Origin: Escherichia coli
GTDB lineage: Bacteria > Pseudomonadota > Gammaproteobacteria > Enterobacterales > Enterobacteriaceae
Length of the DNA stretch: 357 nucleotides
NCBI RefSeq assembly: GCF_003334255.1
Contig: NZ_QOWU01000254.1
Strand: one strand, 5' to 3'
A program made the position numbers and the translations under genes. The notes beneath the pieces were generated by a model that was given only the letters and a program-made list of their open reading frames with translations, searched no databases and had not been told where the DNA came from. Shown here one piece after another: positions 241-357 of the stretch; within the stretch, counting starts at the first letter, position 1, and each line of letters starts with the position of its first letter.

Positions 241-357
241 GCAGAATATTTTGCTGAAAAATGCGGTTTGCTCACACGGGCGGATAACACGAAATCCTGC
301 GAACTGACAAAAACTAAGTGAATAAAAGTAAAAACCCCGTTTGTTGGCTGCAAGCGG

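Follow-up and report, generated by a model that had tools for sequence, protein, structure and literature searches.

Late operons of lambdoid phages are transcribed from pR' by a Q-modified, terminator-resistant polymerase (PMC2629481; PMC7547250). Terminators that are read through under Q, such as tR' downstream of pR', lie within this Q-dependent unit (PMC7547250, PMC2629481). The element described here shares that setting: it is a hairpin at the very end of a 357-nucleotide stretch of Escherichia coli DNA (contig NZ_QOWU01000254.1, assembly GCF_003334255.1; hereafter the window), placed downstream of the endolysin gene R. Most probably it is a Rho-independent terminator of the + strand, 94 nt past the R stop codon, that serves as an operon-internal stop in a prophage lysis cassette. 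Unlike the pR'-proximal tR', the source of StxS/6S RNA, the R hairpin is kilobases further along, with R on one side and the spanin genes on the other. In its build it resembles the canonical intrinsic terminators of E. coli and its phages: a G+C-rich stem of 9-10 bp with a 5-7-nt loop, a T-rich tail (the U-rich tract 3' of the stem in the RNA), an upstream A-run that extends the helix, and a sense-strand position just past the stop codon of a coding region. It is an ordinary, well-known kind of element that would not surprise a specialist, and it challenges no current view: internal terminators with Q read-through are expected in lambdoid late operons.

Two other kinds of described element come close. 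Bidirectional intrinsic terminators likewise have an A-run upstream and a T-run downstream of a single hairpin; unlike those found between convergent genes, however, the R hairpin faces no convergent gene, and the G·U pair of its common variant becomes a C·A mismatch on the - strand. The prophage small RNAs (sRNAs) of enterohaemorrhagic and enteropathogenic E. coli (EHEC and EPEC), namely HnrS, AgvB, AsxR, PasA-D and StxS, occur in the same prophage type and in roughly the same part of the late region, with several copies in one genome, and HnrS and StxS are among those that end in intrinsic terminators. EcOnc10-12 (HnrS) was suspected by its copy number and by its offset of ~5 kb from the AgvB/AsxR-type locus; it proved to be another sequence. 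Unlike the R hairpin, HnrS has its place on the opposite strand, downstream of Rz, with ACTGCTGTGACTCCAACACGGCAGTTTTTTT at its end. The other candidates map elsewhere: PasA and PasC between the sialate esterase and holin genes, upstream of holin; AsxR and EcOnc27 just 3' of stx2B; EcOnc35, in Sp4, upstream of the holin gene; and StxS at tR' (PMC7547250). For hokW-sokW, the literature account examined gives no description at the site of the R hairpin. Neither an annotation nor a published description of this site was found in the records and literature searched.

Frame 1 of the + strand is open from the first base of the window to a TAA at 238-240, and its translation ends in ...EPQKAGIASFCPYNIGPGKCFPSTFYKRINAGDRRGACEAIRWWIKDGGRDCRIRSNNCYGQVSRRDQESALACWGIDR*. 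In matching records this coding part goes under the names 'lysozyme R', 'R protein' or 'phage endolysin'. The window as a whole has matches in 333 phage records, almost all of them Shiga toxin (Stx)-converting or related lambdoid phages. By its sequence, the host element is a lambdoid, Shiga-toxin-type E. coli prophage. Among 5426 complete E. coli genomes, 1998 contain the non-coding part, 241-357, with a maximum of 8 places in one genome; Stx-type prophages with the element are found in more than a third of these genomes. No annotated feature lies under 241-357 among the listed E. coli genome hits. R and the hairpin are laid out as follows:

1-240, + strand: 3' end of the R endolysin (lysozyme), 79 codons plus TAA at 238-240; identified from the frame-1 translation (...ESALACWGIDR*) and from matching records.
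330-334, + strand: A-tract AAAAA, directly 5' of the stem; pairs with the downstream U-tract and would give a T-run on the - strand.
335-343, + strand: 5' arm of the stem, CCCCGTTTG, which pairs with CAAGCGGGG.
344-350, + strand: loop TTGGCTG; U344·G350 may add a tenth pair, leaving a loop of 5 nt.
351-357, + strand: 3' arm CAAGCGG, the first 7 of its 9 bases; two further G's that complete it and the T-tract TTTTGTGTTT follow directly outside the window.
NC_002695.2, ~1,184,820-1,184,829, minus strand: T-tract in the copy of Sakai prophage Sp4, whose hairpin is at ~1,184,830-1,184,854.

Seven pairs of the stem fall inside the window: C337-G357, C338-G356, G339-C355, the wobble T340·G354, T341-A353, T342-A352 and G343-C351. 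The original prediction had described exactly these bases and this pairing, with AAAAA at 330-334, the C-run CCCC at 335-338, and CCGTTTG facing CAAGCGG across a 7-nt loop with one G-U pair; it tentatively took the structure for a terminator truncated by the window edge, whose stem would lengthen to about 9 bp if G's and then T's followed. Taken alone, the fragment (318-357) is marginal: it folds at -9.8 kcal/mol with z = -1.79, and 12 of 200 shuffles are as good. The terminator scan calls nothing within the window because the tail is missing. The forecast of the missing bases turned out to be exact. In strain STEC17-183 a prophage (locus L001) agrees with the window at 357 of 357 bases and goes on past CAAGCGG with GGTTTTGTGTTTCTGACC; among the 68 fetched loci with the same bases as window positions 330-357, 67 have the continuation GGTTTTGTGTTT.

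The full element thus reads A5-CCCCGTTTG-TTGGCTG-CAAGCGGGG-TTTTGTGTTT. Its folding energy is -21.6 kcal/mol (z = -4.96), which none of 200 shuffles matches, and the scan calls it on the + strand of L001 with 14 pairs and a T-run, and likewise in three other relatives; the suspected truncation is borne out. The core stem has 9 bp, six of them G-C, around the 7-nt loop (or 10 bp around a 5-nt loop), and contributes -16.1 kcal/mol. Four A-U pairs with the A-tract extend the helix in the Vienna fold, and in the RNAalifold consensus 50-51 of the 51 sequences retain them. On the + strand a d'Aubenton-Carafa-type score, based on modern energies, reaches 18.9, well above zero, with a T-tract weight nT of 4.05. 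Across copies the stem begins 92-95 nt past the stop codon of R and shares the strand of that gene. The element is real and conserved in a large E. coli prophage family, and it is probably functional.

The two strands are not equivalent. The original prediction had seen the hairpin as possibly bidirectional, serving a convergent gene beyond position 357. Among the annotated relatives (L001, H-19B and PhiR12_1), there is no convergent protein gene at the hairpin and no convergent ORF (open reading frame) that ends just beyond 357 on the - strand. From the hairpin through Rz to terminase, all annotated genes are on the + strand; the sole - strand ORF is a 123-bp hypothetical one beyond Rz in PhiR12_1. 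The A-rich side does read TTTTTACTTTTATT when 321-334 is reverse-complemented, as had been stated, and the C-A mismatch that was said to replace the G-U pair on the - strand is there. With its flanks, the - strand hairpin folds at -14.2 kcal/mol (z = -3.2), but its core reaches only -9.2 kcal/mol against -16.1 on the + strand, and its score is a borderline 0.2 against 18.9 (window variant).

The same preference holds across variants. In an alignment of 51 distinct hairpin sequences (A1), 97.8% of the 458 stem cells are paired as + strand RNA and 86.9% as - strand RNA; 55 of these cells are G·U wobbles, which pair on the + strand only. The hairpin averages -19.3 kcal/mol on the + strand versus -13.6 on the - strand, and 50 of the 51 variants fold more stably in the + orientation. 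Because the + strand pairs and folds better and no convergent protein gene is present, we take the R-sense strand for the main direction: it is chiefly + strand transcripts of R that the element ends or punctuates. The window variant has neither a convergent unit ending at the hairpin nor equal quality on both strands, and the interpretation first put forward is partly supported.

Should the terminator nonetheless be truly bidirectional, its - strand reading (CCCCGCUUG...CAAACGGGG, then UUUUUACUUUUAUU) would end a short antisense RNA. This RNA would start inside the first downstream small ORF and cover its ribosome-binding site, in a manner like type I toxin-antitoxin systems; the consequence would be such a control over an uncharacterised membrane protein of the lysis cassette. 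We regard this as unlikely. The - strand hairpin does still fold, as given above, and it is followed by a good T-run (nT 4.49). A minority variant, CAAACGGGG, makes up about one fifth of the fetched copies and has a perfect Watson-Crick stem; it would be equally strong both ways, with - strand energies down to -20.8 kcal/mol. But in 45 of the 51 distinct variants the U·G of the + strand is a C·A mismatch on the - strand, and the - strand score of the window variant is only 0.2.

The upstream A-run, which this antisense RNA would use as its tail, is strongly conserved (diversity 0.03), and the downstream ORFs encode hydrophobic proteins of 37-60 aa from families of unknown function. Antisense promoter-like sites face the hairpin in 3 of 4 independent classes of downstream module:

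L001 and Sakai Sp4, antisense: promoter-like, TAGTCA or TGGACA, 18 nt, TATACT.
H-19B class, antisense: promoter-like, CTGACC, 18 nt, CATAAT.
L019 class, antisense: promoter-like, CTGACA, 18 nt, CACAAT, with TG before it.
L001 2693-2664 (- strand), L122 731-760, L002 2021-1992 and L019 4457-4428: positions of the weak sigma-70 promoter-like sites, inside the small ORFs and antisense to the late genes.

These sites match the consensus at only 9-10 of 12 positions, their distances are inconsistent (~40-150 nt), and their frequency is near background (0.3-0.7 expected per 400 nt scanned); the class of locus L176 has none. The -10 of L001 and Sp4 lies within K-Y-K codons, and its retention in 62 of 66 copies is therefore uninformative. 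Nor does Table S2 of PMC4104026 list an Hfq-bound antisense RNA at the Sakai Sp4 copy, and a convergent protein gene is absent from the annotated relatives, as noted. A + strand terminator remains the preferred reading.

For an unbiased view of conservation, we used 65 new loci anchored on the last R codons, a sample not pre-selected for the hairpin. The hairpin family follows the R stop in 46 of them, and 39 of these copies fold at -15 kcal/mol or better. Position is kept as well: the A-run starts 88-89 nt past the R stop in 44 of the 46 copies and at 100 nt in the other 2. When the 3' partners are slid by 1-3 columns, pairing drops from 97.8% to 34-58%. In the divergent lineage of L176 and L197 the 3' untranslated region (UTR) of R is substantially different, yet a 14-pair hairpin with a T-run stands at the same place. 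Per-site diversity in the R-anchored sample is distributed as follows:

R codon positions 1 and 2: 0.04.
R codon position 3: 0.25.
A-run: 0.03.
Stem, 5' arm: 0.04.
Loop: 0.20, near the level of synonymous sites.
Stem, 3' arm: 0.08.
T-tract: 0.07.
40 nt past the T-tract: 0.35-0.39.

The pattern is the same in a larger sample. Diversity in the stem arms and T-tract is 3-6 times lower than at the third codon positions of R, while the loop is almost free. This profile is the clearest sign of selection on the hairpin. A structural terminator predicts arms and tail under constraint with a loop that is nearly free; a mere DNA linker does not.

That last possibility, a palindrome with no function at the RNA level, would make the sequence a conserved 'linker', a patch of homology for recombination between lambdoid phage modules, or else a hitch-hiking relic. 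Recombination joints do flank the hairpin: prophages of the Sp5/Sp10 type break between ...GTGAATAAA and GT, at least four modules follow on the other side, and diversity jumps from 0.07 to 0.35-0.39 past the T-tract. A linker explains neither the constraint on the arms and T-tract around the free loop nor the wobbles that keep pairing only in + strand RNA; moreover, the divergent lineage retains hairpin and T-run with different bases, and the architecture is that of a textbook terminator. We consider this explanation very improbable.

The gene context fits a terminator in the R-sense direction. In L001 the genes run: sialate esterase, DUF1378, DUF826, holin, a DUF1327 pseudogene, a small - strand ORF, lysozyme, two small hypothetical ORFs, the lysis protein (Rz), another small hypothetical ORF and terminase. 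Every listed gene is on the + strand save the small ORF between the DUF1327 pseudogene and lysozyme. H-19B and PhiR12_1 share the order S-R-(small ORFs)-Rz. This places the hairpin in the R 3' UTR and within the late operon's lysis cassette. In L001 the next start codon is found ~35 nt beyond the T-tract, with a strong Shine-Dalgarno sequence upstream, and our scan gave no + strand promoter-like site between the hairpin and this ORF. The small ORFs, Rz/Rz1 and all that follows thus need a polymerase that has passed the terminator, and from the missing promoter we infer an operon-internal stop.

We propose the following mechanism. On transcription of UUUUGUGUUU, the nascent RNA would fold as the hairpin CCCCGUUUG/CAAGCGGGG, with one G·U pair and extended by A-U pairs; the hairpin would then destabilise the weak rU:dA hybrid, so that the transcript is released. 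In the late operon, the order is holin S, endolysin R, the proposed terminator, the small membrane-protein ORFs, Rz/Rz1 and terminase. An unmodified polymerase, as in leaky or moron-driven transcription in the lysogen, would stop at the terminator, and after induction the Q-modified polymerase from pR' would read through it. In this way, the spanin, packaging and structural genes would be kept Q-dependent. After read-through, the hairpin may also protect the 3' end of a processed S-R message. Termination in vivo, read-through under Q and the insulating role are what we infer.

Several observations weigh against the terminator as proposed. The U-tract is interrupted (UUUUGUGUUU), and 7 of the 46 hairpin-family copies carry weakening mutations. 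At 10 of the 65 loci, of the Sakai Sp5 and Sp10 type, an antirepressor module replaces the hairpin, and the substitute hairpin of that module is not significant in Sp5. In another 9 loci Rz or another ORF abuts R without a gap, as in Qin of K-12, where rzpQ overlaps rrrQ: there is no intergenic element and hence no copy of the hairpin. A terminator at the R-Rz position is not indispensable. Covariation is thin, with a single pair changed on both sides (U·G to A-U) in two sequences of one lineage, L176 and L197; the remaining changes are one-sided wobbles, and the support for pairing is mostly plain sequence conservation. Finally, the role in insulation and Q read-through is drawn from gene order and textbook lambda biology.

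The importance of the element is modest. It marks where an ordinary polymerase should stop in the lysis cassette of Stx-type prophages, and it bears on how tightly the spanin, packaging and structural genes are silenced in lysogens, as well as on how endolysin and spanin are dosed relative to each other after induction. It also bears on annotation, the site being unannotated in thousands of genome copies. Moreover, it pins down a recombination joint, with small-membrane-protein modules or an antirepressor swapped at the edges of the hairpin, and this joint helps in reading the mosaic structure of medically important phages.

The rest of the non-coding part is not uniform:

241-334, + strand: conserved R 3' UTR, with a small hairpin at the stop, a variable patch, a conserved box GGATAACACGAAATCC and an A-rich run at 321-334.

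Its conserved parts have a diversity of 0.03-0.09 and positions 262-279 have 0.25-0.26, compared to 0.25 at the third codon positions of R. Under another explanation, a regulatory sRNA made up of the R 3' UTR, with the hairpin as its 3' end, would be processed out of the S-R message and act with Hfq through the A-rich run and the U-tail. Both 238-261 (0.03-0.08) and the box at 280-300 (0.05-0.09) are well below the synonymous level of 0.25, but the segment between them, 262-279, evolves neutrally. Five A-R-N triplets (321-335) stand directly 5' of the hairpin; A-R-N repeats, the motif of the Hfq distal face, are reported as the Hfq motif in EHEC (PMC4104026). On the other side, the U-tail is short before its first G.

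Prophages of EHEC are rich in sRNAs at conserved positions of the late region, but the R hairpin is not among the EcOnc, HnrS or Pas sRNAs. To be retained in the screen of Tree et al., an Hfq site had to be antisense to a coding region or over 100 bp away from one; the hairpin lies ~35 nt upstream of the next ORF, and this distance filter would probably have removed the site. Our scan finds no + strand promoter-like site in the window or the UTR, and the extended locus has no Rfam match. No hit reaches the gathering score across the 5.1-kb locus; what appears for the extended locus at the E-value threshold are chance-level hits to the rimP leader (- strand, E = 0.08) and a Bacteroides sRNA (E = 0.047), due to a generic hairpin with a U-run. 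We find an sRNA of this kind quite unlikely. If the hairpin had a second job, either as the bidirectional end of an antisense RNA or as the Hfq-binding 3' module of an R-UTR sRNA, it would be a new regulatory RNA in the lysis cassette of Shiga-toxin-type prophages; that it has one at all is doubtful.

Within this UTR we note some smaller features. A small hairpin, AGCAGA-AUAU-UUUGCU, spans the R stop codon (240-255) and is part of the minimum-free-energy fold of the UTR; it was reported as an 11-nt palindrome, and the diversity of the segment is 0.03-0.08. The patch at 262-279 varies at the synonymous-site rate and looks neutral, between two conserved patches. The box GGATAACAC(G/A)AAATC at 280-300 (core 283-298) hardly varies, not even in the divergent L176 lineage, with a diversity of 0.05-0.09 versus 0.25 at synonymous sites. 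It can form a hairpin GGAU/AUCC of 4 bp (282-285 with 294-297), which has 7 bp in L176, where the terminator scan flags it. The stretch GCGGATAACA in the box matches half of the lac operator, probably by coincidence. The five consecutive A-R-N triplets at 321-335 (AAU AAA AGU AAA AAC) adjoin the stem of the terminator on its 5' side and may merely be its A-rich half.

Three candidates in this region were set aside. An 8-codon mini-ORF (ATG at 261 to TAA at 285-287) is probably not meaningful: its ATG is ATA in many relatives and it has no Shine-Dalgarno sequence. As a promoter for an independent sRNA, a perfect -35 TTGACA at 230-235, in the last R codons, has no -10 at 16-18 nt; it is not conserved: synonymous substitutions make it TCGACA in Sp4 and Sp5 of Sakai. 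The L176 lineage has a promoter-like site at the equivalent place (TTGTCA, 16 nt, AAAAAT) that is not shared. As for an antiterminator-like alternative fold, the sole complementary patch lies in or next to the neutral 262-279, and it is used in neither the minimum-free-energy nor the consensus folds.

Downstream, the T-tract is the last conserved sequence: within ~10 nt after it begin at least four different types of module, each with one to four hydrophobic proteins of 37-60 aa ahead of Rz/Rz1. They belong to PHROG 1115/4493/3246, 4906 and 6632, families of unknown function, and could be lysis-timing or membrane factors. The small ORFs include families ending in ...IRWW that abut the start codon of Rz. 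Both they and the region that replaces the hairpin in some prophages were located:

L001 2657-2985; L002 1899-2036; L019 ~4313-4800; L122 615-728 (- strand): small hydrophobic ORFs between terminator and Rz.
L120 7540-7820 (Sakai Sp5, Stx2 prophage); L121 785-1056 (Sp10): antirepressor-module region.

In the Sp5/Sp10 type the R 3' UTR breaks just 5' of the hairpin, at the joint given above; the terminator is absent, and an antirepressor gene stands between R and Rz. Recombination joints thus delimit the terminator on both sides as a small conserved unit. A substitute terminator was considered in the Sp5-type module, GGCACC...GATGCC followed by TTTGTCATTT; it folds at -8 kcal/mol with z = +1.23 and is not called by the scan. 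A perfect 6-bp version of this hairpin is present in other phages.

In class-b modules, the sequence CCTTG-AGTAAGG-CAAGG lies between the T-tract and the first small ORF (L001 2634-2656 and equivalents). CCTTG and CAAGG can pair, overlapping the Shine-Dalgarno sequence AAGGGAG, and could form a hairpin for translational control of the small ORF.

A second strong terminator-like hairpin occurs on the + strand of L001 at 853-881, with 12 pairs followed by TTTGTTGTTG, just upstream of holin (919). S and R are thereby bracketed by two terminator-like elements. This hairpin lies in the interval between sialate esterase and holin, the region reported for the PasA and PasC sRNAs.

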